From a virus, in the IMG/VR virus record IMGVR_UViG_3300050343_000285, positions 64,001 through 128,000 of that record: 64,000 nucleotides of DNA; one strand, written 5' to 3'. A program made the translations under genes and the position numbers. Of the stretch, positions 2,891 to 43,560 are shown in pieces (within the stretch, counting starts at the first letter, position 1; each line of letters opens with the position of its first letter). Under the pieces are notes generated by a model. That model was not told the origin of the DNA and searched no databases. It saw nothing but the letters and a program-made list of their open reading frames with translations.

Positions 2891-3551
2891 TGAGTCTAGT
2901 CCTTTTGATACAGTTTCTTATTTTACTAAGATCTTTTATTTCATATAAGTGACATATATTTTTATTAATTTTATATGGTTTAATTTCTATGTCGTGTTCT
3001 ATTAATGTGTTTATAATTTCAAATAAATACATATTATTGGATACATAATTCTGAACAATATTCTTACACTTATCAAAACTTTTTTGATTTATGTATATGA
3101 ATTCACAAGCTTTATTTTCTAAATCATAAAAAACAAATTTAACCCTATCATTGTTTATTGTGCAGCCTATTTTAGATTTAAAATTACTATTATTATTAAC
3201 TATTATAGAGTTATTCTTAATCTTAGTTTTACCCAGTATTTCCGTATCAAAAAACATTTCTACATTCATTATAGCTAAAGAAGAAGAGTTGACCATTTGA
3301 ATAGCTTTTTTAATAGCCGTTCCTATATTTGATGTTTGATTAGAATTATAATTAAGATATTTAACCCTAGAGCTAATAATACTATCTAAATATTCCCAAG
3401 ATCCTACTACAATAATTTTAGATCTTTTATAGGAGTTTAATATATTTTTGATTTGAAAATCTAAATATTTTTGTTTATATATTTTTTGCATATATAGACT
3501 ATGTTCTGATACAGAACCGATAGAAATGATAAAATTAGTATTTTGATTCAT
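2877..3551 (-). CDS. Divergent sugar-nucleotidyltransferase / GT-A-like protein
   Basis: KIIVVGS, YNSNQTSNIGTAIKKAI and AIMNVEMFF resemble NTP_transferase strands, but the GxGxR loop is absent. Confidence 0.4.
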   Translation of the reverse strand: MNQNTNFIISIGSVSEHSLYMQKIYKQKYLDFQIKNILNSYKRSKIIVVGSWEYLDSIISSRVKYLNYNSNQTSNIGTAIKKAIQMVNSSSLAIMNVEMFFDTEILGKTKIKNNSIIVNNNSNFKSKIGCTINNDRVKFVFYDLENKACEFIYINQKSFDKCKNIVQNYVSNNMYLFEIINTLIEHDIEIKPYKINKNICHLYEIKDLSKIRNCIKRTRLNVPL

Positions 3552-3973
3552 TGCTTTATAGCTTCTATATAATATTCAAATATATTAATATATTTTTTTA
3601 TAGTAATTTTCATACCCTGATCTTTAAGATATTGCAAAATGTCTCCCATGTTATGGATAGATTTTTTATCTGGATATATAACTTTCTTAATAGTTTCTGT
3701 TGGCATCATATCAAAAGTTACCGCAATACAAAGCTGTTTTAGATCTAAGCTTTGTATATATAAAACACCGCTTTTTTTAATTTTTGAGCATATTTTACTC
3801 AATAGAACAGGAACGTCTTCTGCTATAAAATAATCACAGGTATCTTGCAATATTACCGATTCTAATGATTCTGATTCATAATTATTAAGATTGTCGATAT
3901 TTTCATACGAACTATTCGACGGCTGCAATTCTTGTTCAGTTACGTGAAAAAAAATAGATTTTTTATTATTCAT
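3548..3973 (-). CDS. Short class I SAM-methyltransferase-like protein
   Basis: ESLESVILQDTCDY..VLLSKICSKIKKSGVLYIQSLD resembles the Methyltransf_11 C-terminal motifs; glycine loop not evident. Confidence 0.45.
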   Translation of the reverse strand: MNNKKSIFFHVTEQELQPSNSSYENIDNLNNYESESLESVILQDTCDYFIAEDVPVLLSKICSKIKKSGVLYIQSLDLKQLCIAVTFDMMPTETIKKVIYPDKKSIHNMGDILQYLKDQGMKITIKKYINIFEYYIEAIKQ

Positions 3974-4424
3974 AGTATTGAAAAAGTTTCTTATAAGTTT
4001 TAAAGATTATTTCTGACCATATATCAATATTATTACCTTGGTCTTTTTCTAATATTTTATGATAGGGTTCAGACCACGAGGTAGCAATTTTTTCATTTAA
4101 TGCCACTTTATATGTACAAGGAAGTGAGTATGCTTGTGTTTCTGTGATATTTTTAGGTTTTATATCATGTTCAATTAAAAGTATAGGTATATGAAATTGT
4201 ATAGAAATATTTTTACATTTTTCATGAAATAAAATTTTATTATTACATATAATCAAATGTGGAGAGTCTTTACCAAAATATAGTTGATCAAAATTTAATA
4301 AATTATGTCCAAGCTTTTTAATATTTTGCTTAAAGATCGATTGGTCTATTTCTGTCCATATAATATTAATATGATTATTCTTGTCCAGATGTTCTCTGGA
4401 TAATATACCACTTATTGAATTCAT
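3966..4424 (-). CDS. Hypothetical protein, possibly a glycosyltransferase N-terminal-like domain
   Basis: 152-aa ORF coupled to the GT4 gene; PHLIICNN..IPILLIEH. Confidence 0.45.
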   Translation of the reverse strand: MNSISGILSREHLDKNNHINIIWTEIDQSIFKQNIKKLGHNLLNFDQLYFGKDSPHLIICNNKILFHEKCKNISIQFHIPILLIEHDIKPKNITETQAYSLPCTYKVALNEKIATSWSEPYHKILEKDQGNNIDIWSEIIFKTYKKLFQYYE

Positions 4425-5527
4425 TTTAGTAAGCCTTCCACAAAAGCTTTTTCAGAAAACATTTCTCTATCAAAATTATTAATCTTATTGCTTTTTTCTG
4501 TATTTTTTGTTTCGTACGCCAGTCTCATTTGCTGTTGTATAGAATTTAAAAATGGTTCTCTCCATTTTTCATATACAGTAAAAGTATTTTCTATATAAAA
4601 GTCTTTACTGTACACATTAGTTAATAGGCTGTCTATTACAAACCCATTTTTATTATTAATGTATGTATTTGGACCAGTATCTTTGTTAACTATCGTTAGA
4701 TTTTTAAATAACATTGACTCAATAGCTGAAGCACCAAAAGCTTCTGCTTTACACACATCTACATAACAGTCACATTGGTTATGTAATCTCATTATATATT
4801 CTTGTTCATAATATCCAATTATAATTTTTGGTATTTGTATATTTTTTTCCTGAATCCTTAATGCTTTTTCTACTTGCTGTATATCATAAGCTACTATATG
4901 TTCTGCTTCTTGATTATCAAATCCATCAATATCTGTTTTAATAACTAATTTAACATCATCGTGTTTTTTGAACTCCAAAAAAAATGCTGCTAGCAAAGCT
5001 TTTAAATTATTTTTATCTTGATGTTTAGCAATATAATAAAAAACAAAGTCATTATTTTTATCATTAAATATAGGGTCGTAATCTTGATCGAATTTACTTA
5101 AATCAAATGGTTCTGGTAAAATATTAATTTTAGTTTCACAACCAGCATCTATCATAGACGATCTAGACCATACAGACGGAGTAATAACTTTATCCATCAT
5201 ATTTAATCTTTCCACCCATCCTGTATGACCTATTCCATATGTATCTATTTCCGCTATTGCTACATTTTCTCCAAAATCGTAACGGTACTCAAAACAATTA
5301 GGATATCCATGTTGGATAACCATATCATAAGATTTACTGCTATTTTCTTCAAATTCATTATAATCTTTACCTGCTTCATTACCATAGTCCAAGTAGGGAG
5401 TAAAATAGATAGGACGAATAGATAGGTTAATATCAAAATTATAACCTAAAGCATCAACATATCTTCTGGCGGATCTACCTAGACCAGTGTTCTCTTTATA
5501 CGGACCTATGTACAGTATGTTTTTCAT
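4421..5527 (-). CDS. GT-B (GT4-like) glycosyltransferase
   Basis: NILYIGP..GLGRSAR; KNNLKALL; CDCYVDVCKAEAFGASAIESM (E-x7-E). Confidence 0.85.
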   Translation of the reverse strand: MKNILYIGPYKENTGLGRSARRYVDALGYNFDINLSIRPIYFTPYLDYGNEAGKDYNEFEENSSKSYDMVIQHGYPNCFEYRYDFGENVAIAEIDTYGIGHTGWVERLNMMDKVITPSVWSRSSMIDAGCETKINILPEPFDLSKFDQDYDPIFNDKNNDFVFYYIAKHQDKNNLKALLAAFFLEFKKHDDVKLVIKTDIDGFDNQEAEHIVAYDIQQVEKALRIQEKNIQIPKIIIGYYEQEYIMRLHNQCDCYVDVCKAEAFGASAIESMLFKNLTIVNKDTGPNTYINNKNGFVIDSLLTNVYSKDFYIENTFTVYEKWREPFLNSIQQQMRLAYETKNTEKSNKINNFDREMFSEKAFVEGLLK

Positions 5528-7225: not shown

Positions 7226-7633
7226 TTAGAAAGCTACGGCAGGTTCTCCACTACTGTCCTGACTAGTCTCCTGACTATCTTTTTTGTTAGCGCCAGAAGA
7301 CTTAGAAATCTTCTGAATTCTAGCAAAATTATTTACCCTAACTTTCATTGTGGATCTTTTGATACCATCTTTTTCCCAGGAATCATTTCTTAATGATCCT
7401 TCGATCATGACTAAATCTCCCTTTCGGAAAGAATTGCCAATAGCTTCAGCGCCAGTGTCCCAAGCTTCGCAATTAACAAAGGTCGTAACCTTATCCTGCT
7501 CTCCATTATTCTTAGTAAATTCTCGTGAAACCGCTACGGTAAAATTAATCACAGCAGTTTCCCTGCCAGAAGTATTAACATATCTAAGTTCAGGGTCTCT
7601 AGCTATGTTACCTCTCAAAATTACTAAATTCAT
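7226..7633 (-). CDS. ssb: Single-stranded DNA-binding protein
   Basis: MNLVILRGNIARDPELR..FVNCEAW..GDLVMIEGSLR..W; acidic tail ending AVAF; AGGAG SD before ATG 7633. Confidence 0.95.
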   Translation of the reverse strand: MNLVILRGNIARDPELRYVNTSGRETAVINFTVAVSREFTKNNGEQDKVTTFVNCEAWDTGAEAIGNSFRKGDLVMIEGSLRNDSWEKDGIKRSTMKVRVNNFARIQKISKSSGANKKDSQETSQDSSGEPAVAF

Positions 7634-7687
7634 AACAACTCCTATTTTTATAAAACAATGTAAAAGTCTCAATTGACAACATATGTT

Positions 7688-7715
7688 ATTATAAGCTTTT
7701 CTAAGGTTGAGTCAA
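7688..7715 (-). promoter_or_regulatory. Sigma70-type promoter for ssb
   Basis: TTGACT-N16-TATAAT on the minus strand, overlapping the end of dnaE-C. Confidence 0.65.
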
Positions 7716-7717
7716 GC

Positions 7718-9328
7718 CTATACTTGCCAGCATTTCTTCACTATAAAAGAATCCTTATCCTTGGACCTATCTAATTTTAATATTAAAGTATTACCTTCCA
7801 TTAATAAATCTTTATATTTTGTATATTCTTCTGGAAACACAACAAGATCAGAAACTCCAGTAGAGTCTTCAGCTTTAACAAAAGCCATTTCCTGACCTGG
7901 ATTTAAACCCCTTTTGGTTTTGATAACATTTATATCTACAATTTCTGCTCCTAAAATAGGCTGTTTAGGGCAGTTGTTTTTTAATAGATCTTTACATTCT
8001 GCATTAGCCGTATATATATCACAACCATCAATTTTATGACAGGTTAGAGATATACCTAAATAGAATCTTTCATTACTAGCTAACCATTCTGGACTATCTT
8101 CTAAGTTGTAAGGCGGCTTATTTATACTATTGATGATAGATAATACTACATTCTTTCTCTTAGCTATCAGCTTTTTTTCTGTATTATCTATTAAGATAGC
8201 CAATGCTTTATCTATATCAATTTCTTTATCAAAAATTTTATTTAGTACAGACAGCTCTCTGTCGGTAAGACTATTTAAGTTTTCGTAGTAAAATAACATT
8301 TTATTTCTAGATATAGACAAAGTATCTATAGCTCCAACAGATATAATAGCTTTTGCTGCTGTAGAGTTGATATGTTGTAAAAATTCGCAATATAACTTAC
8401 CGAATCCCATATTTTTTAAATTAATATTATTTAATATTTCTGTAATTTTTTCATAAACTGAATCACCAACACCTTTAATATCAGTAAGACCAAAATAGAT
8501 ATTATTATCGTCTTGATCTATAAAAAATTCTTTTGATGGTTTTCGAATGCTAGGTTTATAAACATCTATACCCATTTGGTTAGCATTATTGACTAATTCT
8601 TGAATTTCTTTTAAGGGATCTATTTTATCTTTAGCAAATTTCATATATGCTGCAAAAAAATGTTTAGGAAAATGAGCTTTTATATAAGCAGACAAGTATG
8701 CATTATAAGCATAACTAACAGCATGACTTTTATTAAAACTATATCTTTGACTTTTTTCAATCCATCCAAACACCTGCTCAGCTTCTTCTTTTGATAATAT
8801 TTTAGCGGATGCTGTTTTTTTGATAAAAATCTTTTTAATCTTTTTCATTTCTTCTGGTTGTTTCTTACCGATAGCTTTTCTTAATTTATCAGCTTCGGTG
8901 AGATCGAAATTAGCAACACACTGACATATTTGCATAGCTTGTTCTTGATAAACCATTTCTCCATAGGTGGTTTTCAATATAGGTTCTAATGACTCATGGA
9001 AAAAGTCTACTTCTTCTTCTTGATTTTTTTTATCTATATAATGATTGCTAACAGACTTACCATCACGATAAGCTTCTAGACATCCCGGCCTCATGATACT
9101 TATCAAGGCAGAAAGCTGCTCTATATTGTTAGGTTTTAATTTCTTAGACATCATCTGACCTAGTCTAGATTCTAACTGAAAGCAACCCTTAGTATTCCCT
9201 TCAGATATTAAATTCCATGTTCTATTACAGCTTAGGCAAATATTTTCTAAACTAATATCTAAGTCAACGCTTCCGTCTTTTCCGACAGGAAACTCGCAAG
9301 CACAATCTGCAAATGTTATCGTTTTCAT
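7718..9328 (-). CDS. dnaE: DNA polymerase III alpha, C-terminal chain (fingers, HhH, OB)
   Basis: GCFQLES, MRPG, VYQEQ, ADKLRKAIGKK, YSFNKSHAVSY, YFGLTDIKGVG, OB-fold AFVKAEDSTG..VVFP. Confidence 0.95.
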   Translation of the reverse strand: MKTITFADCACEFPVGKDGSVDLDISLENICLSCNRTWNLISEGNTKGCFQLESRLGQMMSKKLKPNNIEQLSALISIMRPGCLEAYRDGKSVSNHYIDKKNQEEEVDFFHESLEPILKTTYGEMVYQEQAMQICQCVANFDLTEADKLRKAIGKKQPEEMKKIKKIFIKKTASAKILSKEEAEQVFGWIEKSQRYSFNKSHAVSYAYNAYLSAYIKAHFPKHFFAAYMKFAKDKIDPLKEIQELVNNANQMGIDVYKPSIRKPSKEFFIDQDDNNIYFGLTDIKGVGDSVYEKITEILNNINLKNMGFGKLYCEFLQHINSTAAKAIISVGAIDTLSISRNKMLFYYENLNSLTDRELSVLNKIFDKEIDIDKALAILIDNTEKKLIAKRKNVVLSIINSINKPPYNLEDSPEWLASNERFYLGISLTCHKIDGCDIYTANAECKDLLKNNCPKQPILGAEIVDINVIKTKRGLNPGQEMAFVKAEDSTGVSDLVVFPEEYTKYKDLLMEGNTLILKLDRSKDKDSFIVKKCWQV

Positions 9329-10023
9329 GAACTAAAAGCGCCTTTAAATTGTATCTTACTGCTTAAATTTTTATGCAGTCTTAAGAATCTAATTAATATT
9401 TTTGCACAATCCTCAACATCTTTAATTGCATCATGAGCATTATCTTTGCTTAATCCTAGATAATCTCTCATATTATCTAAAGATAAAGATCTAACTTCGG
9501 AAACATAACTCATCCACAAGAACATAACATGCATTAAATCTATCTTGTCTCTAGGGTGAAATAAACACGTACTTTTTTCTTTATTAACATTATCATATTT
9601 TACACTTAATCTATCTACAATTGGCATATCAAATCTTAATATATTATACCCACAAGCAATAGGTGCTGTAAATTGAGATTTTTTACCCCCATTAGCTTTT
9701 GAGTGATATTTATCTAAATACGATACGAATTGAGACCAAGCATGTTTCTGATTAGGGTATTGCTTCCAATCAGATAATACCTGTTGAGCCGAGATAGCTT
9801 TCACCTTACCGTGCCATTCTAAAATATCCGAGTCGGTATAAGGATTATCGCAAGACTCATCTTCCAATTTTTCAGGTTTAAGCATCACATTAAACTGTGA
9901 ATTTTTAACAATATCTAGCTTTATAGGATCAACAATTACCGCAGATAACTGAACCGGACTACAAACAGAAGGGTTTATCCCATCTGTTTCAAAATCAAAA
10001 ACACAAATTTTATTCCTAATCAT
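9325..10023 (-). CDS. dnaQ: DEDDh 3'-5' exonuclease (DnaQ/epsilon-like)
   Basis: ExoI VFDFETDG, ExoII GYNILRFD, ExoIII AHDAIKD. Confidence 0.9.
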   Translation of the reverse strand: MIRNKICVFDFETDGINPSVCSPVQLSAVIVDPIKLDIVKNSQFNVMLKPEKLEDESCDNPYTDSDILEWHGKVKAISAQQVLSDWKQYPNQKHAWSQFVSYLDKYHSKANGGKKSQFTAPIACGYNILRFDMPIVDRLSVKYDNVNKEKSTCLFHPRDKIDLMHVMFLWMSYVSEVRSLSLDNMRDYLGLSKDNAHDAIKDVEDCAKILIRFLRLHKNLSSKIQFKGAFSS

Positions 10024-10192
10024 TTATTACCTCCACCTTTGCTTTGTATTCAAAAAGTATTTTGTTGTTATCCTGTAATTTTAACGCATTACATTCAATT
10101 TGGCAACAGTTCTTTTTTATTTCAGTAATTTTTAAATATTCTAATTTATTGTAAATAAATCTTTGACCCACTTTTACATTCTGGAATTCCAT
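10016..10192 (-). CDS. 58-aa hypothetical protein ([58 protein letters not shown])
   Basis: Translated by hand; its ATG overlaps the dnaE-N stop (TAATG) and its end overlaps the exonuclease start. Confidence 0.65.
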   Translation of the reverse strand: MEFQNVKVGQRFIYNKLEYLKITEIKKNCCQIECNALKLQDNNKILFEYKAKVEVIND

Positions 10193-12083
10193 TATAAAGC
10201 CTTTATATTCAGTAAATTTTTAGCTAACATGATCTTATCCAATAGGGCTATGCCTAAAATATCGAATTTTATAACACCAATTGATTCTAAGTCGGACATT
10301 TCAAACCCTGCTATATTTTGATTTGTTTTTTTATCCCATATCATTGGACATATAGAGTTCAAAGAGTTATTGGCTATAGCTATACCAGCAGCATGTTTTG
10401 ATTGATTATATTTAGAGCCCTCTAACCGAATAGCTTGCTCAAATCTTTTTGCTAATGGGCCTTGTAGCTCACCATCATCATTTAAATGGCACCATTCTTT
10501 TAGTTTGTCTCCGTTATTTTCTAGAGCCCATCTAATTATGGATGCCCCACCATTCCCATCTTTCATTTGTTGCAATTCGTCAGCTATTTTTGCTTCATCT
10601 GGAATATTTTTTGTTATTTTATTCATTTCTTGGAAACTTATATGTTGCCGTAAACCCTTAATACTTCCTTCAAAGCTCCCCTGCCTTTTAGAGTATTAAA
10701 AGTAATCATTTGAGAAACTTTATCATCTCCATACTTTTCTCTAATATAATTAATAATAGCTTCTCTATGCTCTAATAGGTACGTCCACATCAATATCAGG
10801 CATTGATACTCTGTTTATCGGTGTTTCTCCCTGTATTATAAAATCTTTCAAAAATTAAATCATATTCAATAGGGTCTATAGAGGTAATACCTATAAGGTA
10901 CGACACTAGACAACCAGCAGCACTGCCTCTACCCGGTCCCGGCAAACAATCAATGAGATTTCACACGATCAACGATATCTTTTACAATCAAAAAATAGCT
11001 AGACAGATTTGCTCCTTCGCTAAAACATCAAGTTCTTGCTTGATTCTTTCTACATATATTTCATGCTCATCTTTAGGTACTTTGTTTTGCTATTTTGGAC
11101 TCGCCAGCCATTACGACATAACTCTCTAATATACTCTATCTGGCGTTTGTTTATCTAGGGCATTCAAAATCTGGTAATTGTGGAGCTTATGTAAAATATC
11201 ATAATCCTCACACATATTATCTATTAACTATAGTATTTTCAAGTTCTTCTTGAATCATGCAATTCATCCATTTCTTCAGGAGATAAGAATATAATATTTA
11301 TCAGAAGTAAAAAAGGTAGACAATGCCACTTCTTGATTATTTAAAATTTTATTTGATACATCGGGGAGTGTCGTCTTTAGAGAACTACATAGTAACACTC
11401 TTTGATCTACAGCGTCTAGAATATCGCAATAGTGTGCGTCTATAGTGGCAACTCTAGGAATATGCTTTGACTTAGAAAGATCTCTTAATGACTTTCCTAT
11501 AATCTGTTGATGCTCATTGCCTGCGTCCATTAATTGTATTTCAATAAAAAAATTATCTTTACCAAACACATCTTGTAGATTAGATATATGTTGCAAAGCT
11601 TTATTTTCCCAATCGTCAATCATGGCTGCCTTATCAAAACTATATATCTCATTAGCTAGCGTAGAACCGGGATGTCCCGAAATACAAATAAGGTCTTGAT
11701 TATTTATATACTTTTTTAATATATTTAAATCAATTCTAGGTTTATAGTAAAAATATTCTTCGCTATTAGATACAGAGACTATCTTAATAAGATCTTGCCA
11801 GCCATCATAATTTTTAGCAAGAACTACTAAGTGTGACAAAGATCTATTAGTTTTATCCTTAATGGTAGCGTCAGCACTAATATATAATTCGCAACCTAAT
11901 ATAGGCTTAATATTATTTTGCTTCATAGTTCTATAAAAAATCTATATTACCAGATATAGTGCCGTGATCAGTAATAGCGCAGGACTTGATATTAAGACTA
12001 GCGCATCTTTTAGCAATTTGCTCAGGTTTAGATATACCATCCAATAAGCTATAATGCGTATGTACATGTAATGGTGTGTACAT
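10192..12083 (-). CDS. dnaE: DNA polymerase III alpha, N-terminal chain (PHP, palm, thumb); several single-base indels
   Basis: [16 protein letters not shown] at ATG 12083, [46 protein letters not shown] (~10780-10803), SKHAAG, KFDILG; stop TAA at 10192. Confidence 0.9.
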
Positions 12084-12086
12084 TAA

Positions 12087-13151
12087 TTAAACCTCTCCTG
12101 GGGCTTTGTATGTGTCTACAGAATGTCCTGGGGCAGTGTATTTTTCTACTACATAATCCATACCATTCACATCATTGTCGTGTTTAATCTGTTCGCATTG
12201 TGTCATCAACTCATCCTTATGTGTAACTTGACGATCTCTATATTCTATCATAGGAGATACTGTCTCGTCTTGCAAAAAATTGTTCTTTCCAAAATGACAT
12301 AATTTAGTACATTTCCATGTTTTCTTTAAATGAGGACTCTTACTATTTTTTATTCTATTGAATTTTTCTCTAATCATATATTCGGCAACAACTGCGTTGT
12401 CATCATTATCAAAGCATATTGAGAAAGGACCACCATCATTCATAAAATTAATTGTCATAATAATATGTTTAAATTCTGGAAATAATCTATGTATAGCATA
12501 ATGATATATCCTTAACTGAGGATCTTGTTCTAACTTTTCTTGAGTTTTTTCTTCTCCAGTAGCCCAGTTTAATCTTTTACCAGTTTTCCAGTCAATAATT
12601 TCTAAGGTATCATCAGACACCTTAGTTATCAAGTCTACGGTGCCTTTAATAGATAGATGGCCTTCTAATTCACCCTCAACTGTATCATATTTATATTTAG
12701 CCCAAGGTTTATCTATAGATAGGTCGAAATGTTGTTCAGACCTAAAAACATCTCTTAATCTAGGATCAAATAATCTATTATTACCTGTTAATGTTTTCCT
12801 TACCCATTCTATACAATCTGTACGATCTTTTTGAAACCATTGATGGTTAGTAAATCTAGAGGTATAATAATCGTATACAGCATTACATAAATATAAGACA
12901 TATTTATTATCAAACATATCGCAAGTATTTAAATCTATAGCTCCTATAATTTCATCATCAATAGATACTTCCTTATCTTGTATACCTTTTTTCATAAGGG
13001 CTAATATTTCTAATACCTTATGGACAATTGTGCCCTTGTCTGCTTTTTTATTAGAGGAACCTCTTCTACCAAGAACATATTCAATAAAATATTGTTGCTC
13101 GCACATATTATGCGTACCATAAGAAGAACTTCTAAAGTATGTAATTATAAT
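12087..13151 (-). CDS. Cas4/RecB-like PD-(D/E)XK exonuclease with probable 4Fe-4S cysteines
   Basis: KGTIVHKVLE, IKGTVDLI..LEIIDWKTG, QLRIY; Cys in MCEQ plus CTKLC and QCEQ. Frame is open upstream to ATT at 13151. Confidence 0.8.
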   Translation of the reverse strand: MIITYFRSSSYGTHNMCEQQYFIEYVLGRRGSSNKKADKGTIVHKVLEILALMKKGIQDKEVSIDDEIIGAIDLNTCDMFDNKYVLYLCNAVYDYYTSRFTNHQWFQKDRTDCIEWVRKTLTGNNRLFDPRLRDVFRSEQHFDLSIDKPWAKYKYDTVEGELEGHLSIKGTVDLITKVSDDTLEIIDWKTGKRLNWATGEEKTQEKLEQDPQLRIYHYAIHRLFPEFKHIIMTINFMNDGGPFSICFDNDDNAVVAEYMIREKFNRIKNSKSPHLKKTWKCTKLCHFGKNNFLQDETVSPMIEYRDRQVTHKDELMTQCEQIKHDNDVNGMDYVVEKYTAPGHSVDTYKAPGEV

Positions 13152-19794: not shown

Positions 19795-20211
19795 TTACTT
19801 TAAACTCCTATTAATATCTTTAAGTAATACTACACTTTCGTTTTTTAAAAAGGATAGATATTTATTAAAAATATTGTGATCCACTTCCTTAAATCGCCAC
19901 TCATCTTTACACACACTATCAATAAAATTATTAAGAGCTTTGTCTTTTAAGGGGGTGTGTAGCTGTCTTGGATCAAAAGCTTCTTGATTAGGATTACATT
20001 TTATATAATAGCTATAATTCTTTTTACGGTCTGTAATATGTTTAGTTTTTTTATTACAAGTTGCTCTGGCGTAAGCCTGTTCAACATCATCAGTTATAGG
20101 ATAGCCATCGCTATCGAACTCCTTTGCCTTAGCTAATGATGTGTATAGCTTGTCCTCTTTTGTTCCTATTTTATGATGTACTATATTAAACTGTTCTTTG
20201 TCTATTTTCAT
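19795..20211 (-). CDS. Hypothetical protein
   Basis: 138-aa ORF in the operon. Confidence 0.6.
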   Translation of the reverse strand: MKIDKEQFNIVHHKIGTKEDKLYTSLAKAKEFDSDGYPITDDVEQAYARATCNKKTKHITDRKKNYSYYIKCNPNQEAFDPRQLHTPLKDKALNNFIDSVCKDEWRFKEVDHNIFNKYLSFLKNESVVLLKDINRSLK

Positions 20212-20779
20212 TTTTACATTCCAAAGGTAAGAAGTCCGACCATTCAGATATATATCCTATATTAGTCATTGATTGGTACCAAGGCAAGAACCTATAATTA
20301 AAAGCTGGCTTTACAGGTTTAGATAATAGTTTCATATTTGCTTGCTCAGGAGTTTTATTACCCTTTTTTCTATTGCAAATATTACATGCTGTAACTATAT
20401 TTTCCCAAGAGGTTGCGGATTTATAACTATTCCATTTAGATTTTGGTATCACATGATCATATGTTAGATTCTGGGATAAAGATTTTTTACCACAATACTG
20501 ACATGTATTATTATCTCTTAAAAATAAATTTTTTCTAGTAAATTTTACACTGTTTTTATATGCTTTAATATATGAGTTTAATTTTATTATACTAGGTATT
20601 GAATAAAGTTTAGCACATCCTACGATTTTATCATTCTGATAATACTGAACAATATCAATCGCAGGATTTTTTTGTTGAAAAGTTTTAAAATACCAGTTAA
20701 TAGCCACTCTCCAATCTATGATTGAAACTGGACTATAATCTAAATTTAAAACTAAACAAGGCTTATGCTTTATTTTCAT
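20186..20779 (-). CDS. HNH endonuclease (McrA-like)
   Basis: CLVLNLDYSP; NLFLRDNNTCQYCG; TYDHVIPKS; WENIVTACNICNRKKG. Confidence 0.92.
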   Translation of the reverse strand: MKIKHKPCLVLNLDYSPVSIIDWRVAINWYFKTFQQKNPAIDIVQYYQNDKIVGCAKLYSIPSIIKLNSYIKAYKNSVKFTRKNLFLRDNNTCQYCGKKSLSQNLTYDHVIPKSKWNSYKSATSWENIVTACNICNRKKGNKTPEQANMKLLSKPVKPAFNYRFLPWYQSMTNIGYISEWSDFLPLECKNENRQRTV

Positions 20780-21496
20780 TTTTATTAATTTTATCTATAA
20801 TATTACCTATTATAGGATTTCGTAAAATGTCACTACATTCTAGAGACATTGTACCTACACCATCAACATCGGCTAAGATTTGAGATAGGTTGTAAAAACC
20901 TCCTCTTTGTTGAAACTGTAAATCAGATTGTGCTATATCCCCAGTAAAAACCATTTTACTATTCATACCTATCCTGGTTAATAGCATTTTAAGTTGGTCA
21001 TATGAAGCATTTTGACATTCATCTGCTACAATAAAAGAATTATGAAAACTTCTTCCTCTCATTAATCCTAGAGGAACAACTTCAATTTGTCTACTTACTT
21101 TTAAGTTTTGCATAACTATGCATTTGTAAAAAATAATTAATTTCATCAAAAATAGGTAGTAAATAAGGATGTAGTTTTTCTTCTGCTGTCCCGGCAAAAA
21201 ACCTAGTTTTTCTCCGGCTTCTACTACAGGTCTAGTTATAACAATTTTTTCTACTTTAAAATCAATGAAATATTCTAAAGCCATTCCTATAGCGATATGT
21301 GTGTTTTACCACTACCAGGAACACCTTGACAAAAGGTAACAGTATTTTCTGCTACAGTTCTTATATAGTCTTTTTGATTGATACTTCTTGGCTTTAACCT
21401 ATTTTTAAAACCAACAATATTTGATTCTTCATTAGGTGTTATGCTTATTTGTAGCATCTATACTTTTTCTTCTTGTTTACTTTTTCTTTTTCTCAA
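20763..21496 (-). CDS. phoH: PhoH-like ATPase (frameshifted in this sequence)
   Basis: KPRSINQKDYI, VTFCQGVPGSGK, KIVITRPVVEAGEKLGFLPG, VVPLGLMRGRSF, ADECQN, FTGDIAQSD; indels near 21120-21400. Confidence 0.85.
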
Positions 21497-21520
21497 AATG
21501 TATAACCTTTCAGGGTAAAG

Positions 21521-23726
21521 TTAAATTAGACATGCGCCACCAGCACAACTAATTTCCTCTATTCCTGTAGTATTGTCCTCTGTTTCTAGTAGTTGTGTAT
21601 AATCTACCTTACTAAAACTATTAAAAATCTGTATATATTTTCCAATTATATACATCTTTCATACAATAGGTAAGTCTTTTTATATCTTCGTTAAAGTATT
21701 TTTTTGCAAATCTCCTGCATTTTAATGCAAACAGTTTTTTATCATCATCCATCTTCATCTGATTCTTGATTTAGAGTCATATAGTCACAAGCAGCCCATA
21801 GATTATTATTAAATGCATTAAGACCTAATTCTATTAAACCTGAACACCATAAGCCAGCATCTCCATATTCTTTGACAATTTCTCTACTAGTGTAAACTGT
21901 GGTAAAAGGAGCTTGTGGATAATCTTTATCTCCACTTTGTGGGATAAGACTAATGCCAGCAAAAAACTTTCTGTTGTTGTAAATAAATTTTGTTACATCT
22001 TCCCATTCGTCTGGTTGTACTGTTACGGTATTACTTACATTATGACTAAAAAATCTTGAGTACACAAAGATCTATTTTTACCAGAATGTACCCAATTTGT
22101 TTGAGCATCTTTTACTACTCCCTAACATTTCTACTGCAGGTAATTGATTTTTTAATTTAGAGCCATCTGGAACCTCAATCGGAAATTTTACAACTTCATC
22201 AGTATCATTAGCAGACCAAGAAGATTTTTCACAAGCTTGTGGATTGTAACTTTTAAAATGTTGATATGGAGGTTCTAAAATATTTGCTTGTACATGTCTG
22301 ATATATCTTTTTGCATGATGAGGATGAATACCTGAACTAGTTCCTAGCATGCTACTGCTAGTACCTTCTGGCTTTAAACATGTAACTCTTGCTGCTTGAT
22401 TTATATCAATTTTTTTAGCAATTCTTTATTGTGTCTACAGCAATTTTAGCTCCTTTTTTAAGAACTTTTTCTGTTAAAACTAGGTCATGTTTTTCCATAA
22501 TTCCTGTTAAAGATACACCTAGTAAAGCTTCTCTTTCAAAGATAGAGTTAGTGATTTTACTCCTAGATATTCTAGATCAGTAAAACCAGCTTGTAAAGTA
22601 CCTATAATCGCAGCAGCTTTACATCTTTCATAAAAATCCTCTTCGTCTACTACAGATGAACAATTAATTGTAGATAAGATTACAACCTTGCCATCCAGAT
22701 TTGCCTGTTTTTTCATCTACAGGCCACATCCCTACTTCTACACACGGATTAAAAGTCATTTCTGTAGAATCGCTCCAGATAAAACCAGGCTCTCCAAACT
22801 CTTTAACGGATTCCATAAGAGTTTTGACAAAATCTTCATAAGTAGTATCATCCTTTAATAATAACGCAGAGTTATTACTTCTAGCTCTTTGTGGATTGTC
22901 TATATACCAATTACCTGTTTTTGCTTTCGCCATGTCTTCATCATTTGCGCTAAATAATGCTAACGACGCACTTCTACGAACACCACCAGATAATACAGCA
23001 TCGCTGCTGTGCATAATAATATCATAAGCATCGATTGGTCGTAAGTTTTTTTTGTTTGTTTTCAACGCAATTCTCCAATAATTCTCTAATTTTTTCTAAA
23101 CCTTTTTGCAGTGGTTCAAAACCTGGGGCTTTGCCAACTCCAGAAGATAATACTGCGCCCTTTTCTCTAATGTTTGAATAATCAAAAACAATATATTTAT
23201 CTTTATACTCTGAGAAATTTGATTCACTAGGTTTGTTAAAATATGAACTTAACAAAACACCCAAAGCATCTGCCCAGCCTTCAATACTATCTTCTATTTT
23301 ATATTTTACACCTTTTCTTTTGTCTTTTTTTTCTGTGACACAAGATTTGGTAGTTTTGCTACATGATGTTTTTGGACACTAAATCCAGTACCACTACCAC
23401 ACAACAATAAGCCAAAAACATTCTTGAAAAAATCTAAGTCTATCACAATATGAGCTGGTACAGTTGTAGATCTTAGCGTGACGCTTTAAAATTGGCTCTC
23501 CGCCAAACTGTAGCGCTCTTTGACTACCTAGTACTCTTTTTTTAAACATTAAGTCGTAGGCCCAGTCTATTTGATCAGAGATGCCTTTGTCGTGATATTG
23601 GGTATGCATCATGTTTTTAACACGGTCTACCGCTTCCTTCCAGGTTTCTCTACGATTTTCACTTTCTATCCAACGAGCATACTTACTAACAAATGTATAA
23701 TTTTGAAGCTCATTCAGTGCCGACAT
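21521..23726 (-). CDS. nrdJ: Class II (B12-dependent, monomeric RTPR-type) ribonucleotide reductase; several indels
   Basis: TFVSKYARW..RRETW, SQRALQFGG, IYNC, GGVRRSA, NPCVEV..QGCNL, TCLKPEGTSS, C-terminal SCAGGACLI; no small-subunit gene nearby. Confidence 0.88.
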
Positions 23727-28078: not shown

Positions 28079-29764
28079 TTATATATAAATTTTATCGCAT
28101 GTCAACTTATGAGGTATTAATCCTGATAAAATTCTTTCCCAAGTATGCGTTTTGGTGGCTCGGTGATTTTTGGTGTAGCCATATTCTAGACTTAGATGTT
28201 CTTCGGATAGATTAATTTTATATTTTTTAATAAAAGATTTAATAACACTAAGCTTATAGATAAACATTGTACCAGCAAAAAAATTAAAATTATAATTAGT
28301 ATTAATATTATAACGATTACAAAATTCATTCATTTTTGATTTATTAATATCATCCATTGGTACATTGTGGTCGATTAATCCTGCTATAGCTGAGTGACGT
28401 TGGTTTTCTAAAAGATAAAGAGAATAATCTAACTGATTTAATATTGAATCAAAACACATATGTCTAAATCCATGATGTGATTTTGAATGAAATTTTAAAA
28501 TATAATTATATTTATTGTTATCTAATATATATTTATCTAATATATATAAAAATGGGCCTATGTCTGCTCCAATATTTGGTATAACATATGAATCTATATT
28601 AGGTATAATATCTATAGAAGTTACAAATAAATCTATTCCTAATTTCTGAATTTTATCTATATATTTTTTAATATCATTTATGTAAACACCATTGAGGTTT
28701 CCGATATGTATATGGCAGGCTACTCCAGTATGCTTATCATTTTTGTACTGTAAGAATTTATCAATAATGCTACGACCAGTACAATTAACAATTTCTGGTT
28801 TTAAAACACAATGTTGAACATTCAGTCTTGATATTTTGTATAGCTTTTTGGATATTAGTGGAAATTCGTGTTTTTTAATAATATGTCTATAATCTAATAT
28901 ATCAAAAGAAAATAAATTTTGCCAAAATATTTCTTTATATAGATTAATATATAATAAACAGCTATAAGTTATATTATTCTCAAATAATAATTTGTTAATA
29001 TAAAAGCTTGTACGACTAGTGTTCTTAATTATACATTTTAATATTTTAAATGCTGTACGTCTTTTCATTATCATACAATCGGTATTAATACCATAATAGT
29101 ATTTATTATTATAAGTTATATTATATTTATCATGAATACTAAAAACATCAGCATTAGAATGCATTCCTTGTTTTATAAAATTCTGTAATGATGAGCATAT
29201 ACAATTATTATTATTTATATATAAGCAGTAATTATATTTTTTTATATATCTTATTAGATCATATGGTTTTGTTAGGGTCGTTATTTTATCTTTATATTTT
29301 TCATTTATAATCTTGCAAAAATTGATATGACCTAAAGTGATAATTTTAATATTCTCTGTATCGCTCAGAATATTATCAATAGAATTAATAGCTATAGCTA
29401 AGTCTACTTCACTATTTAAATATGCTACATATATACAGCACATATTATTAATATTTATTGAATGATTTAATAACTCGCAAGAAGTGTTTTTATCTTTAAA
29501 CCATTGATGATATGAGTTTTTACGCAATAGAAAGTATTGTATAGCCCTATATTCCGTATCAATACTAATATTATTCCAATTTAATTTACTAACAAATAGA
29601 CCATAGTCAAAATTATCATTAACTATACATCTATTGATAAACTTTCCTTCAAGCTTATTGTCTTCCCAAAAATTTTGAGACGTAGAAGAACAACCATAGT
29701 ATTGATTATAAAAATCTTGATCAAACACATTAAGGAATGTGTTGTGTATATCCTCTGAATCCAT
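28079..29764 (-). CDS. Glycan-synthesis protein with C-terminal RgpF (rhamnan synthesis F)-like domain
   Basis: CHIHIG..LFVT..NIGADIGPFL..ILKFHSKS..FFAGTMF..HTWERI. Confidence 0.75.
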   Translation of the reverse strand: MDSEDIHNTFLNVFDQDFYNQYYGCSSTSQNFWEDNKLEGKFINRCIVNDNFDYGLFVSKLNWNNISIDTEYRAIQYFLLRKNSYHQWFKDKNTSCELLNHSININNMCCIYVAYLNSEVDLAIAINSIDNILSDTENIKIITLGHINFCKIINEKYKDKITTLTKPYDLIRYIKKYNYCLYINNNNCICSSLQNFIKQGMHSNADVFSIHDKYNITYNNKYYYGINTDCMIMKRRTAFKILKCIIKNTSRTSFYINKLLFENNITYSCLLYINLYKEIFWQNLFSFDILDYRHIIKKHEFPLISKKLYKISRLNVQHCVLKPEIVNCTGRSIIDKFLQYKNDKHTGVACHIHIGNLNGVYINDIKKYIDKIQKLGIDLFVTSIDIIPNIDSYVIPNIGADIGPFLYILDKYILDNNKYNYILKFHSKSHHGFRHMCFDSILNQLDYSLYLLENQRHSAIAGLIDHNVPMDDINKSKMNEFCNRYNINTNYNFNFFAGTMFIYKLSVIKSFIKKYKINLSEEHLSLEYGYTKNHRATKTHTWERILSGLIPHKLTCDKIYI

Positions 29765-37133: not shown

Positions 37134-38448
37134 TTAAACATTGATAATGATTTTTTCACACCAATCCCCACCCTCTATATGAGGTATTATAACGCAGTGA
37201 TGCACATTTCCTTCACATGAAAATTTAGCGTGATGTGAGTTTCTTCTTTTACTAAAGCATTCTTCGTAATAAGCTTCCTCATGATTGAAATCTTTACGCC
37301 ATAGTAGTTTATTGTCTTTGTCTTCAAATCCAAAAAACCAAAAATCAAATTTAACATTATCAGGAATGTCGTCTCTGTTCCATTCTACATTATAATTATG
37401 GGTACCTAACATACCATTAGACCATTCTTCTTCTGACATAATATATGGCTCTGGTATTTCTGTAGAATCATGGATACGAGATGCATACTTATGCACTTTT
37501 CTGTTTTGGAAATCTAGACCACAATACAGTTCGTATTCGTGTAAACTTCTCTTATTACCAAACCCATAATGTCTAAAGTCTATATTAGAAATTTCCATAC
37601 CAAAAAGTTTTCTTTGTCTTTCTTTAGACCTAATATTTCTAGCTTCAGCTTCGATGTCAAAATCATTGGACTTTACATGATCCTCCCAATGTTTATGCTC
37701 TTTTTGTCTTAAATACTCATGCCATATAATAGAATATGTTGGATGAAACATATCATAGCCATGAGTATATGCTCTAGCGCTCAAAGTTACTTCTTCACCA
37801 CGAAAATATAAATTGGGGTCGTAAATACATTCTCTACAAAAATGACCAGAAGTGAAGATGAAGTGACCAGAAAGCAATCTAGCTTTAATTAAATTAATAC
37901 CTTTAGATTTCAAAAATTTATGATTATTAATGAGTTGTGGTCTAGATATTATATCACCATCATCGGTAAAAGTATCAAAAGTAACAATTCGATACGGCTC
38001 TTCTTTCAGTGGTTCTTTGTCTTCTTTATTCTGGCCAATAGGTTGTTCCATATGTACCAATAATTGGTTTAGATGAAGGAGCTTCCTGATATAGATTTTT
38101 TAAATATTCGTCCCCAGTGTTCTTTAAAAATCTATGATGAGAGTCTAGTTGCAAAATAATACTTCTTCATCTGTGATATAGATGTTTTTGTATAGTGTGC
38201 CTAGCCCAGCAAGCGCCCTTACTTTGTCTGCCAATCGCATTCATAAATTCTTAATGTTTTTATTATCTGTAAATTCTTGTATGGACTTTCGGATTCTTCT
38301 GTTTTTTGCCAACAAATGACCCACTCTAATGAGATCTGGGTGTTTAGCTTTTAATAAAAAGATCTCTTAGCGTCGGTAAAAGCTCAGGATCTCGATATGA
38401 GGCTATGCTTACAAATATCAGATTATTATTCTTTGTCGTTATGGACAT
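37134..38448 (-). CDS. GT60 (Gnt1/Skp1-HyPro and mucin-type polypeptide alpha-GlcNAc transferase)-like protein; N-terminal part frameshifted
   Basis: IFVSIASYRDPELLPTL, SKGACWARH, LQLDSHHRF, FTSGHF, YFRGEE, RAYTHGYDMFHP. Confidence 0.8.
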
Positions 38449-39170
38449 ATTCTCTTAATAAATTTAACGATTGGATATGTTTGTACACTAATATATTTAC
38501 ATTCAGATTTTATAATAAGATTAATGTGTTCATCAGTCCAGACATCTCCATTAAAAATGGTATTTATGCCTGATTTTTGTTCTAAATACTTAGATGCTAT
38601 AATATTATCATATATATTATCTAAAAAGAAATTACGTAGATGGATAAACAGTATCTATATTGTTTATACTCCATGTAGAATCGAACTAAAACTTAGCTAA
38701 TATATTATGATTATATTTTCTATAATCTAATAATATATCTGAATAGATGTATCTTCTGGAACGACTGTAGCTTTAATTCTGATAATCTCACTTCTAATTT
38801 TGTCGTATTTTCTATTAACTAAATAAGCACGACGGAGCCATGATAGAGATAATACCAGACTTCTTTGAGACTTCTTCTATCTTTTTTAATCATAGACAGA
38901 CGAATTACTGTACATTTAGTCCCTAGTGGATACGTCTATAGTGAATATTTATTTTGTTAGGATTGATTAAAAAAATTTTAGCTATTCTATATTGATGTTC
39001 ATTAATTAGTACAGAATTTAGATTTGTCGTACTGTCGTGGAGACTTTTTAAGAGTTTCTTTAGTTTCTTGGTCTGTTTAAGAATGAATCTATATAATATT
39101 CTACAAACATTTGATTTAATAATTATTTTTGTAGGTATTTAATAATATCGTCAACATAACTGATATTCAT
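38439..39170 (-). CDS. Hypothetical protein, heavily frameshifted
   Basis: Coding-like fragments from ATG 39170 to TAA overlapping the GT60 start; boundaries approximate. Confidence 0.4.
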
Positions 39171-39790: not shown

Positions 39791-40226
39791 TTATTTTTCG
39801 TATACTTTATTCTGTATGTTTTCCATAACAGACCTATCCTGAAAAGCCTTGCCTATACCGATTCTAAATCGATATCTTGTAAAAATATCTAATGTTTCTA
39901 CCCCTTCTGTTTTTTCTATTATATGTTGAATTTTTGAAGATATGCTAAAATTAGTATGACCAATCCAAAATTTAAAAGTTTTAGTACACGCTGTCCCCTT
40001 CATTAAATGGTATAACACCCATAGGGGTTATTATAGCCTTAGTATTCATTTTTGAAACATCTTCTTCTTTATTCTTTTCGTTTATTTCTTTTTGCTGCTC
40101 ATAATCTTCCCATTCAGCATACTCTGAAAAATCCTCAATACTGATATCGTCTAAAAATTCAGGATCTTTGTCTAAAGGTTCAAATGGATTAACCCATTTT
40201 TCCCATAATATTTGTTTATTATTCAT
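39791..40226 (-). CDS. Hypothetical protein (one gene split by an indel into two track ORFs)
   Basis: IITPMGVIPFNEG continues as TACTKTFKFWIGHTNF after a one-base shift near 39995. Confidence 0.6.
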
Positions 40227-40229
40227 AGT

Positions 40230-40589
40230 TTAAAGACATGCGTTGGTTTTAATTAATGGTTCTTCAGATATTTGTTCTATAGCCACCTCTTTTAATACAT
40301 TATTTTTTTTATCTAATAAATCTAATGCATTATTAATAATATGTTGATCTAAATCTTTTCCTTCATGATCTTTCAAAATACTGATAACCTCGTCTGCGAA
40401 CAATCCGTAATGTAAACCTATAATGAGATTTGCTAATTGATCAGGGCATTTTTCAAGATTATGATCCCATTTAATTTCGAAAGAATATTCATTATTCGTA
40501 CTTATACTAATCAGAACAGAGCAACCATCTTGATCTTTTGCTGATTGATCATCTTTCTTCTTATTAAATAGTTGTAGAAATGACATCAT
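40230..40589 (-). CDS. Hypothetical protein
   Basis: 119-aa ORF. Confidence 0.55.
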   Translation of the reverse strand: MMSFLQLFNKKKDDQSAKDQDGCSVLISISTNNEYSFEIKWDHNLEKCPDQLANLIIGLHYGLFADEVISILKDHEGKDLDQHIINNALDLLDKKNNVLKEVAIEQISEEPLIKTNACL

Positions 40590-40961
40590 TTATTAATTTT
40601 AATTCTAAAGATATACTTGTGTCGTATATGTCAAAGGTTTTCCAGAAAAATTGATTATTGATTTCTAACTTTGGGCATACGCATCCATATAAAAAATAGA
40701 GATTATCTTTAGTGTCAGGGAATAATTTACAGATAATTTCATCATTTATACTCATAAATTTAGGACTAATATAGCCATTTGCCATTTGCTTGTCAGTAAA
40801 TACATCTGCAATAATTTTATCCTTAATGGTATTTTTGTAAATTCCGATAGTCTTCTATTTCCCAGTAAGGTAATTTAATACTAGATTCTTGAAGAGAAAG
40901 AATGTACTTCTCCTCTTTGTAAAAATCTGTAGTTATCAAAGCCGGTACTGCCCCTAAACAT
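40564..40961 (-). CDS. Hypothetical protein (5' part frameshifted)
   Basis: Track ORF 40564-40785 extends upstream through indels to ATG ~40961. Confidence 0.4.
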
Positions 40962-41633
40962 TATACGATATGACCTTTCTTATTATATTATAGGCTTTAT
41001 TTAGATTTTGTCTAACAGCTTCTCTAGTGATGTTATGTGCTTTTCCAATATTTTCTAGTGTCATCTCTTCAAAGTAATACATTCTAAGATATTCGTGACT
41101 GTCTTTCTGATAATAAGTCACTGCTTAAGAGATTCTTGAATATCTTTCTTTAAGATTGTCTTTATCTTCATCTATCTATTACTTGTACTTAATATAGAAG
41201 GATATTATTTTCGCTAGATAATATGTTATTTAGATTTAACTCTTCATCGTCATAATTTTTATCTAGAGATAAGCTGTTTACTTCTGATGCTGATTTTTTT
41301 TACCATACTGTCTAGTGATATAGCTTTTGAATTGCCCAAATAGCGCACTGATTTCTATAAGAATATTTGGTTTTGGCTTTTACCTGAATTATAGCACCCT
41401 TACGATTGCTCATCCCATCTCCAATCAGCCATCATGATACCATTAGCGACATTAGCTATTGCATCTTCACTTGGATAGCATCCTTTTGGTGGCACCTTGG
41501 CAAATTTGATCAGCAAATTTTGCTATACTTTTTTGAGCCAAAGTTAAATAAAAGCTTAAACTTTCAAATGTGATCTTATCTTTATTATTATACTTAGTTT
41601 TTTGTACGTACCAATATCTACTATATCTATCAT
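40954..41633 (-). CDS. RNA polymerase sigma-70-family factor (indels)
   Basis: Region 2-like EDAIANVANGIMMADWRWD..SYRNQCAIWAIQ; region 4 HTH YLRMYYFEEMTLENIGKAHNITREAVRQNLNKA. Confidence 0.75.
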
Positions 41634-41679
41634 TTTAATTTCCTCTTAGTAATTTTCCAAAATCCCTATAGTTTAAATT

Positions 41680-42104
41680 TTATTTTTTATCTTCTTCAAC
41701 TTTTGCTGGAGCTGTATTTTTGTCCACCTTCTTGTTTGAGCTCTGCTTGTCTACTGGGAGGATTTTTAACTGGTTTCTTACGTTTACCACACCCGCAACC
41801 CGCACTACACTTTTATCGTCATCCACAGGAGCGATACTTTACAAAATCATGTATAGTTTTCATGTACTCTTCTGTTACAGCAATTTTACCCTGTAACCAG
41901 CTTGCTGTCAAATTCTTTTTTACAGATTGGATCAGATAATGAATCTAAAATAGATTTTGCATTAGTGGCAATAGATTTTAAAGAACCAATATTCATATCT
42001 AATAAAGTCTTCTTTATATTCTGTGAAGCTCTTTTACATCAGAAGTGCTTGTTTGAATATTTTGTTGGACTTCTGTTAATATTTATTTTATACCTCATTA
42101 TCAT
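41680..42104 (-). CDS. Hypothetical protein (indels)
   Basis: GGAG SD; fragment NAKSILDSLSDPSVKKNLTASWLQGKIAVTEEYMKTIHDFV; ends VEEDKK*. Confidence 0.5.
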
Positions 42105-42129
42105 CACTCCTTTTGCGTAAGGCTTCTGT

Positions 42130-42814
42130 AGTTTAAATTGATTGTCTATATTTTTAAATTTTGGATACAACTATAGCTACTAACAATTTCAGACAGCTGC
42201 TCGGTGATCAGATCTATAGTGAACTCCCTGTAAGCATTCTAGCATAACCGCTACTTGGTCTGCTAATAAAAATAAATCTCTCTTATGGTCAGGGATATAA
42301 CTCTGCACACACATGCTGCTAAAAGAGCAGCATACATCGTATGTCCACTGGGGTATGAGGCTGTATGATGTGTTTTAGTAATAATTCGATCAATATCAAT
42401 ATCTAATTTTTCTGCTAATTGAAAAGGTCTAGCTCTATTATAAAAAAGCTTTAAATGATTAATTATATGTAATACTGAAAATCTATATATATTATGAAAA
42501 AGATTTTCTGAAAAATTAATAGATAGATCCTCAGAGAGTTCTCTAAAAAGTATTAAAGGATCGGTATCTACTGTATAAATTAAATGTAAATCAGCTTGGG
42601 ATCTGTTATGAGTTGATGTAGAGATTGATTCTAATTCAGCTAGCGTATTCTTACTAGAATTAGCATAGGGTTTATCTACTATTTTAAATAAATCTATACT
42701 TCCTAATTCTGGAAATTTAATTTTAGCATAAGGAGATTTATCATAGTCAAATGGATCTCTGTATGTAATATTATCCAGTTGTAGATTTTTTTGTATATCA
42801 GATATAATACGCAT
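42130..42814 (-). CDS. PAP2-superfamily acid phosphatase (3' end frameshifted; end approximate)
   Basis: KLFYNRARP, SYPSGHT and, past the indel, R-x2-QGVHYRSD. Confidence 0.8.
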
Positions 42815-42815
42815 A

Positions 42816-43560
42816 TTACCAAGCCTTACAAGACCAGTACCTTGCCTTCCATTTTGGTCCAGGATTATCGCAATTATGTCTAGCTCTAAAACTTTTTCTT
42901 CTTTCTGGTATGTGTTTTTTAATTTTCATATTTGGATCACCAAACCTGACTATAACAACATTGCCTTTTTCGTTTTTTAGTATATACAGCAAATTTTTTA
43001 GGACCATCTGAAGTTCTGAATGGTTTATTCAGTTTTACTTTTCTACCTTTATACTCTGCTGCTCTAATGAGATATCTACCATTTTTTTTATAACTTCCGG
43101 GCCTGTCGTATACATATATTTCTCCGGTTTTAGGATCTTTATATTTGTATATCCTAGATTGGGCTTTTTTAATTTCTTCTGGACTTGGCCTATCTGGATC
43201 TCCAGGTTTGGCTGGTCTATATTTTTTTCCTTCTCTTTCTTTTTTCTTTCTGATATTTTCCCATAAGCCGGGTTTTGCTATAGATAAGTCTATTACTTCT
43301 TCTGTCTCTTCACAATGAATATAATCTTCAATATTTGGTTCTATATAATTGTGTTCATTTACAATCTCAGTATAACCATACATATCAAAATAATAATATT
43401 CTTGAGCACATGATAAAATATTATTTATAGATCCATTAGACATGCACATGCCTAATCTTTGTTTATTGTCTGGAAATTCTTTTTGAGACTTGGGATCAGA
43501 CATACATCTAGCAATAAATTTTTGCCTATCTTCGTCTTGTTCTCTTTTTGGTAAAGGCAT
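42816..43560 (-). CDS. Basic protein made of concatenated short phage micro-domains (one indel near 42975)
   Basis: PLPKREQDEDRQKFIARCM; KPGLWENIRKK..KPGDPDRP; KFAVY..NEKGNVVIVRFGDPNM..RRKSFRARHNC..YWSCKAW. Confidence 0.65.

Follow-up and report, generated by a model that had tools for sequence, protein, structure and literature searches.

Separate genes for the two parts of a C-family DNA polymerase, with a proofreading exonuclease gene between them, in a clade of uncultured phages

To our knowledge, the alpha subunit of DNA polymerase III (Pol III; DnaE) is normally regarded as one polypeptide, and where it is known to be split in nature, inteins mend the break. The split DnaE of cyanobacteria is rejoined by split inteins, and its break site lies later in the protein than the cut described below. 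PolC, the C-family polymerase of Firmicutes, carries its exonuclease as a domain fused inside the PHP domain. In marine metagenomes, 'fractured genes' with split inteins have been described whose pieces are separated by another gene (Dassa et al. 2009, PMC2677866). Outside the C family, the two proteins into which gp43 of Aeromonas phage 25 is split (gp43A and gp43B) are active and co-purify (Petrov et al. 2010, reviewed in PMC2988022). Group 2.2 jumbo phages encode a split Pol III that is a minimal core lacking the PHP and other domains; its genes lie far apart and occur beside a family B polymerase (Iyer et al. 2021, PMC7824862). A literature search returned only papers on split inteins and no description of an intein-free split of dnaE between palm and fingers. 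Here, we analyzed a dnaE locus in a stretch of 64,000 nucleotides of viral DNA (IMG/VR record IMGVR_UViG_3300050343_000285, positions 64,001 to 128,000; 'the window' below), in which dnaE is represented by two separate genes with a proofreading exonuclease gene between them. The best overall explanation, which we hold to be probable, is a two-polypeptide C-family replicase that arose by a single split, with the additional frame breaks in one of its genes being errors of the record.

All genes between 7.2 and 13.1 kb of the window were located on the minus strand. Read in the direction of transcription, the locus starts with the gene for the N-terminal chain (N-chain; PHP, palm, and thumb; positions 10192 to 12083, with the start at 12083 and the stop at 10192), whose true product has 624 amino acids. 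It is followed by an open reading frame (ORF) of 58 amino acids, taken from the ORF listing (10016 to 10192), by a gene for a DEDDh (DnaQ/RNase T-type) 3'-5' exonuclease of 232 amino acids (9325 to 10023), identified by Pfam RNase_T, PHROG 192, and its Exo motifs, and by the gene for the C-terminal chain (C-chain; 7718 to 9328), a protein of 536 amino acids with its own ATG, to which fingers, HhH (the beta-binding domain), and OB were assigned by Pfam and a structure-sequence alignment. N-chain gene and 58-amino-acid ORF overlap in the sequence TAATG, the latter ORF and the exonuclease gene in 8 nt, and the exonuclease and C-chain genes in ATGA; these overlaps suggest coupled translation of the four genes, and a role for this coupling. 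The ORFs of the two chains are 865 bp apart, with two genes between them, and this separation recurred in all split-clade loci. DnaE is thus not encoded as one continuous polypeptide at this locus. A preliminary description of the window had proposed a C-chain with its own ATG and a gap occupied by an exonuclease gene and a 58-amino-acid ORF joined by overlapping starts and stops; ORFs, coordinates, and junctions were all found as proposed.

Together, the two chains reproduce the domain order of bacterial DnaE, for which the enzymes of Escherichia coli and Thermus aquaticus (Taq) were used for comparison (structures 2hnh, 2hpi, and 5fku): PHP, palm, thumb, fingers, HhH, and OB follow each other in the same order, and catalytic aspartates and finger motifs are conserved. 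Pfam models PHP and DNA_pol3_alpha matched the N-chain region of the window. On an intact ortholog of the N-chain, the PHP domain (PF02811) was matched at 3.6e-43 and the palm/thumb family (PF07733) was covered at positions 2-260 of 260. All three catalytic aspartates (in PDIDVD and KFD) are in the N-chain, where they were aligned to Taq alpha, and the alignment of this chain to Taq alpha extends as far as about residue 629. Its tail past the palm motif comprises 13-19 residues. The preliminary description had placed the stop about 17 residues after KFDILG; a stop just past this motif was indeed found, at a distance of 19 residues. In the C-chain, Pfam recognized DNA_pol3_finger (PF17657, 9.7e-44) and HHH_6 (PF14579, 36.5 bits), and the OB fold gave a weak match of 21 bits, under the cut-off of 27. 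The C-chain aligns to residues 577-895 of E. coli alpha and 623-948 of Taq alpha and contains the finger motifs YQEQ, RKAIGKK, and FNKSH. The break maps to about 623-640 in Taq alpha and about 560-577 in E. coli alpha. Because the alignment of the N-chain ends and that of the C-chain starts there, the cut is placed at the palm/fingers boundary, with, as judged from these alignments, nothing missing. Unlike bacterial DnaE, the phage version consists of two polypeptides, lacks the tau-binding C-terminal domain, and has a new head on the C-chain: approximately 18 extra N-terminal residues without counterpart in fused relatives, with a motif F-x-x-C-x-C-x-F that is conserved clade-wide across split forms.

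Both chains were searched for signs that they might be rejoined. In a Pfam search, no intein or Hint family matched either chain, including its ends, at E<=0.01, and no Rfam model of group I or group II introns matched at E<=1 in the region 7600-12200. As a positive control, the same Pfam library found an intein (PF14890) inside the C-chain of relatives. In these relatives (P0024-P0030, P0057, and P0059), a full intein was located at RPG|C, corresponding to residues 82/83 of the window protein, and an HNH_2 match was found within the intein of P0059; this insertion is internal to the C-chain and does not lie at the split junction. Protein trans-splicing, RNA splicing, or translational bypass would each restore a single chain. 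In favor of such rejoining are the split inteins of cyanobacterial DnaE, the marine 'fractured genes', whose pieces carry split inteins and flank another gene, and the ability of the split clade itself to host inteins. However, the N-chain tail of 13-19 residues and the C-chain head of about 18 extra residues are too short for intein halves, no Hint or intein family was found by a library that detects the relatives' internal intein, no group I or II intron model matched, and the genes in the gap do not encode homing endonucleases: one is an ortholog of a free-standing phage gene for a DEDDh exonuclease and the other encodes a predicted 58-amino-acid barrel protein. We give rejoining very little credence. 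The locus thus shares with split-intein DnaE and the 'fractured genes' a replicative polymerase gene in two pieces, and differs from them in a junction without intein halves and in a gap gene that encodes the phage's own proofreader instead of a homing endonuclease. The earlier proposal of two intein-free dnaE genes with an exonuclease gene between them was in this respect borne out.

The split was not confined to the window. The same layout of intact N-chain, exonuclease, and C-chain was found in 11 IMG/VR loci whose C-chains were 54-87% identical, and the split was kept in every relative fetched, with a conserved breakpoint and an overlap of 4-8 nt between exonuclease and C-chain genes. The best 120 protein clusters (54-93% identity), many of them from Tara and other marine data, were all C-chain-only, and the next relatives were fused DnaE proteins of 1052-1146 amino acids with 39-44% identity. 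When a tree was built from the C-chain region, the 15 sampled split forms constituted one clade (Shimodaira-Hasegawa-like approximate likelihood ratio test, SH-aLRT, 100), which was nested among fused phage DnaE. Breakpoint and gene order, whose search in related phages had been suggested in the preliminary description, were therefore found well beyond this record, and its statement that the split is not a sequencing-indel artefact was upheld by the relatives, the clusters, and the tree. Members of the clade are uncultured phages, largely from marine data; among INPHARED phages, a DNA search gave no match, a protein search gave only matches with <30% identity, and no close cultured relative was found.

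Two loci with a fused dnaE were syntenic with the window and carried, in order, DnaB, a nucleotide kinase, PD-(D/E)XK, fused dnaE, SSB, a glycosyltransferase, an exonuclease of 221-223 amino acids, and a glycosyltransferase. In both, the exonuclease gene lies two genes downstream of dnaE. The gap exonuclease and that of the fused loci are orthologous over their full length, with 37-39% identity. Since the ortholog stands two genes downstream in these two relatives, the exonuclease gene appears to have moved into dnaE, and the simplest history would be a single fission with relocation of the exonuclease gene into dnaE. The flanks of the window locus belong to the same module. On its upstream side, a gene for a PD-(D/E)XK nuclease (12087 to 13106, minus strand) was recognized by a Pfam match and by a gene order shared with relatives and the fused sister clade as part of the same syntenic replication module; on its downstream side, SSB, of 135 amino acids when counted from its ATG (7226 to 7633, minus strand), was identified by Pfam SSB and by gene calls in identical contigs. 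In addition to SSB and the proofreader, the replication module encodes DnaB and primase.

Other phages may have cut dnaE elsewhere. In a more distant phage contig (L015:2729-7551), genes for a PHP-only protein (253 amino acids), a DEDDh exonuclease (223 amino acids), a 284-amino-acid ORF, and a palm-to-OB protein (870 amino acids) were observed; on this one contig, the cut appears to be at the PHP/palm boundary, again with an exonuclease gene in it. Profile lengths and matched ranges of PHROG 7513, 13169, 12219, 11165, and 21652 suggest further phage DnaE fragments, with N-parts of about 460 amino acids whose ends lie directly ahead of PDIDxD and C-parts of about 780-820 amino acids. Several break points of dnaE may thus exist among phages.

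In the window itself, the N-chain region (10192-12083) did not contain one open gene. Translation with table 11 yielded fragments of 50, 216, 49, 51, and 144 amino acids in three frames, and frameshift-aware alignments required 13-14 shifts, all of +1 or +2, with 13 needed when the ortholog came from the nearest IMG/VR relative. The preliminary description had treated the N-chain as a single intact gene, its motifs apparently having been picked across frames; for the window as deposited, this part did not hold. The exact C-chain protein was looked up in public assemblies, which yielded 15 contigs with 100% identity, of which seven places were inspected. Three of these, from independent samples (one JGI and two Logan), contained an intact N-chain ORF of 624 amino acids (1875 nt): L024 (JGI 3300035228), L025 (SRR7617347), and L026 (SRR18278864). 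In L024, the gene occupies positions 3263-5137. A fourth contig, L027 (SRR11625187), begins inside the N-chain gene and holds its last 703 nt. Wherever they overlap, the N-chain sequences of these four contigs are identical.

Comparison of the window with L024 over 13.6 kb gave 99.75% identity, with 100% identity outside positions 10637-11291 and position 11940. The former patch, for which no strand was assigned, contained 34 mismatches and 13 insertions (16 nt) and no deletions; a further extra T at 11940, in a T-run, brought the total to 14 insertions (17 nt). Similar damage was found elsewhere in the record. Since nucleotide indel counts against the 113.8-kb relative G001 (about 72% identity) were too noisy, frameshift-aware protein-to-DNA alignment was used instead. 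At least 70 frame shifts were required across the genome, which clustered at 29393-29744 of the genome and at 10.6-11.9, 21.1-23.4, and 38.0-43.0 kb of the window; in the reverse test, G001 showed 0 frame shifts in ORF interiors. The patch at 20946-23411, between flanks that were 100% identical, differed from two mutually identical independent contigs by 200 mismatches, with 25 nt inserted and 10 nt deleted, and within its 732-amino-acid ORF 107 of the 130 substitutions were synonymous. One patch was seen to cross a gene border. Because independent assemblies are intact and other patches are damaged alike, the frame breaks in the N-chain are most likely errors of the record and not phage biology.

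Several alternatives to record errors were weighed. In a defective or decaying genome, the N-chain gene would be a real pseudogene with biological frameshifts, as the presence of the breaks in the deposited sequence and the breakage of several other genes of the record might suggest. We consider this very unlikely, as independent assemblies of the same phage carry an intact N-chain, damage is confined to sharply bounded patches between flanks of 100% identity, and dnaE is the only polymerase gene of a CheckV-complete genome. Moreover, the mostly synonymous substitutions in the patches imply that the underlying allele is under purifying selection, and a spectrum of 14 insertions and 0 deletions in 655 bp is unlike that of natural decay. 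Gene-specific decay of the N-chain was rejected in view of the same damage in other patches, which spans gene borders. Programmed recoding (+1/+2 ribosomal frameshifting, quadruplet decoding, or RNA editing) would agree with shifts that run in one direction, by +1 or +2. Its probability is nevertheless negligible: near-identical genomes without the extra bases in effect refute it, no sequence context is common to the 14 sites, homology stops upstream of the next stop codon and not at it, and another patch has deletions too. Stop-triggered frameshifting or quadruplet decoding was rejected on the same lines, with no motif or in-frame stop shared by the shifts and homology that ends before the stop. 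Random read errors alone were rejected as a sufficient cause because, in the patches, most substitutions are synonymous. What the patches resemble is a genuine divergent allele to which spurious indels of 1-2 nt were added, and this fits a strain-mixed or chimeric consensus.

Beyond dnaE, bounded patches were observed at 20946-23411, 38028-39162, and 39998-42978 of the window and at 29393-29744 of the genome, before the window. Genes broken by these patches, which are intact in independent contigs, include those for a 732-amino-acid RNR-like protein, PhoH, a GT60 glycosyltransferase (breaks seen in comparison with L016), a PAP2-like protein, and others. At the edge of the patch at 20946-23411, a free-standing HNH endonuclease gene (197 amino acids; 20186-20779) adjoins PhoH and the RNR-like gene. 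As the bounded patches break several essential genes, annotation of this IMG/VR record will call false pseudogenes.

The exonuclease in the gap has the features of a proofreader. It matched Pfam RNase_T with 34.8 bits (cut-off 24) and PHROG 192, 'DNA polymerase exonuclease subunit', at 3.8e-18, and it is the single RNase_T match in the whole genome. Its Exo I, II, and III motifs (FDFET, NILRFD, and HDAIKD, respectively) align to those of solved DEDDh enzymes. At its C-terminus (9325-9390), the protein ends in KIQFKGAFSS, and the tails of fused-clade orthologs are similar (F-x-x-x-F); this tail could be a clamp- or polymerase-binding peptide. As in PolC, a DEDDh exonuclease is placed within the polymerase coding region; in contrast to PolC, the phage polymerase is divided into two chains, and the exonuclease has its own gene, located at the palm/fingers boundary. 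Conservation of the 58-amino-acid ORF was seen in 7 relatives; its 9 invariant residues include a CC pair, and an NA motif was also invariant. An AlphaFold2 model predicted a small SH3-like beta-barrel (predicted local distance difference test, pLDDT, 94.6), for which searches of Pfam, PHROG, and Atlas, and of the PDB with Foldseek, gave no significant lead. Because this ORF is missing in two loci (L005 and L006), it is not required for the split.

With catalytic aspartates on the N-chain and deoxynucleoside triphosphate (dNTP)-binding finger residues on the C-chain, neither chain would be able to act as a polymerase alone. Throughout the genome, which is CheckV-complete, no PolA, PolB, or second Pol III palm was recognized. 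In the mechanism that we propose, the split would have arisen once, when the proofreader gene, in most members together with the 58-amino-acid ORF, came inside dnaE. The four genes would be translated in coupled fashion from one mRNA, with the N-chain (624 amino acids) supplying PHP, a palm with three catalytic aspartates, and thumb, and the C-chain (536 amino acids) supplying fingers with dNTP-binding residues, HhH, and OB. It is likely that the two chains, made from one mRNA, associate non-covalently and rebuild the DnaE fold with a single active site, probably with the exonuclease. The heterodimer already envisaged in the preliminary description is, as an inference, a reasonable idea; its suggestion that epsilon is built in co-translationally is speculative.

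The best functional precedent for the phage dnaE split is split gp43 of Aeromonas phages. In phages 25 and 44RR, gp43A and gp43B likewise represent an intein-free split phage replicative polymerase encoded by adjacent cistrons with an insert between them. They differ from the present case in belonging to the B family instead of the C family, in having a seg endonuclease gene or an untranslated spacer as insert, and in occurring in few phages and not in a large clade. With the minimal split Pol III alpha found in group 2.2 jumbo phages, the window locus shares a C-family catalytic module made of two stand-alone proteins without inteins; in contrast, the window phage has a full-length DnaE, split over adjacent genes, as its sole polymerase.

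Alternatively, the chains might no longer cooperate. The phage would then be replicated by the host polymerase, and only one chain would retain a function, for example as a PHP nuclease (N-chain) or in binding DNA or a clamp (C-chain). That no clamp or clamp loader was recognized would be consistent with such a loss. We nevertheless regard it as unlikely, since both chains have kept all catalytic and dNTP-binding motifs throughout a deep clade in which identity falls to 54%, the two are always adjacent and coupled, and the module also carries DnaB, primase, SSB, and a proofreader. Three points weigh against the two-polypeptide replicase with record errors. First, it is on the grounds of domain logic and conservation that the chains are proposed to associate, and the same holds for the activity of a two-chain polymerase. 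Second, no sliding clamp was found in the genome, in searches of which the one for gp45 had no positive control. Third, any cause named for the patches is a guess, with a consensus mixed from several strains and the filling of gaps with long reads among the candidates.

The split is interesting for polymerase structure and for the evolution of gene fission, yet it is not a new principle. A large and abundant clade of marine phages has retained one fission at the palm/fingers hinge, to which the proofreader gene has relocated, and thereby presents a clear, datable case of gene fission through gene relocation. More tentatively, and with appreciable doubt on our part, the split may be adaptive: owing to the position of the proofreader gene, a core of three or four subunits (alpha-N, the small barrel protein, epsilon, and alpha-C) would be assembled as it is synthesized, with an active site across the chain interface and the CxC head involved in docking. 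If true, these phages would have a heteromeric C-family replicase that is natural and widespread and differs from the alpha-epsilon-theta core of bacteria. In this clade, it can be studied in a natural setting how two chains form a C-family active site, and the position of the split reveals a site at which the enzyme can be cut, a help in the engineering of split polymerases.

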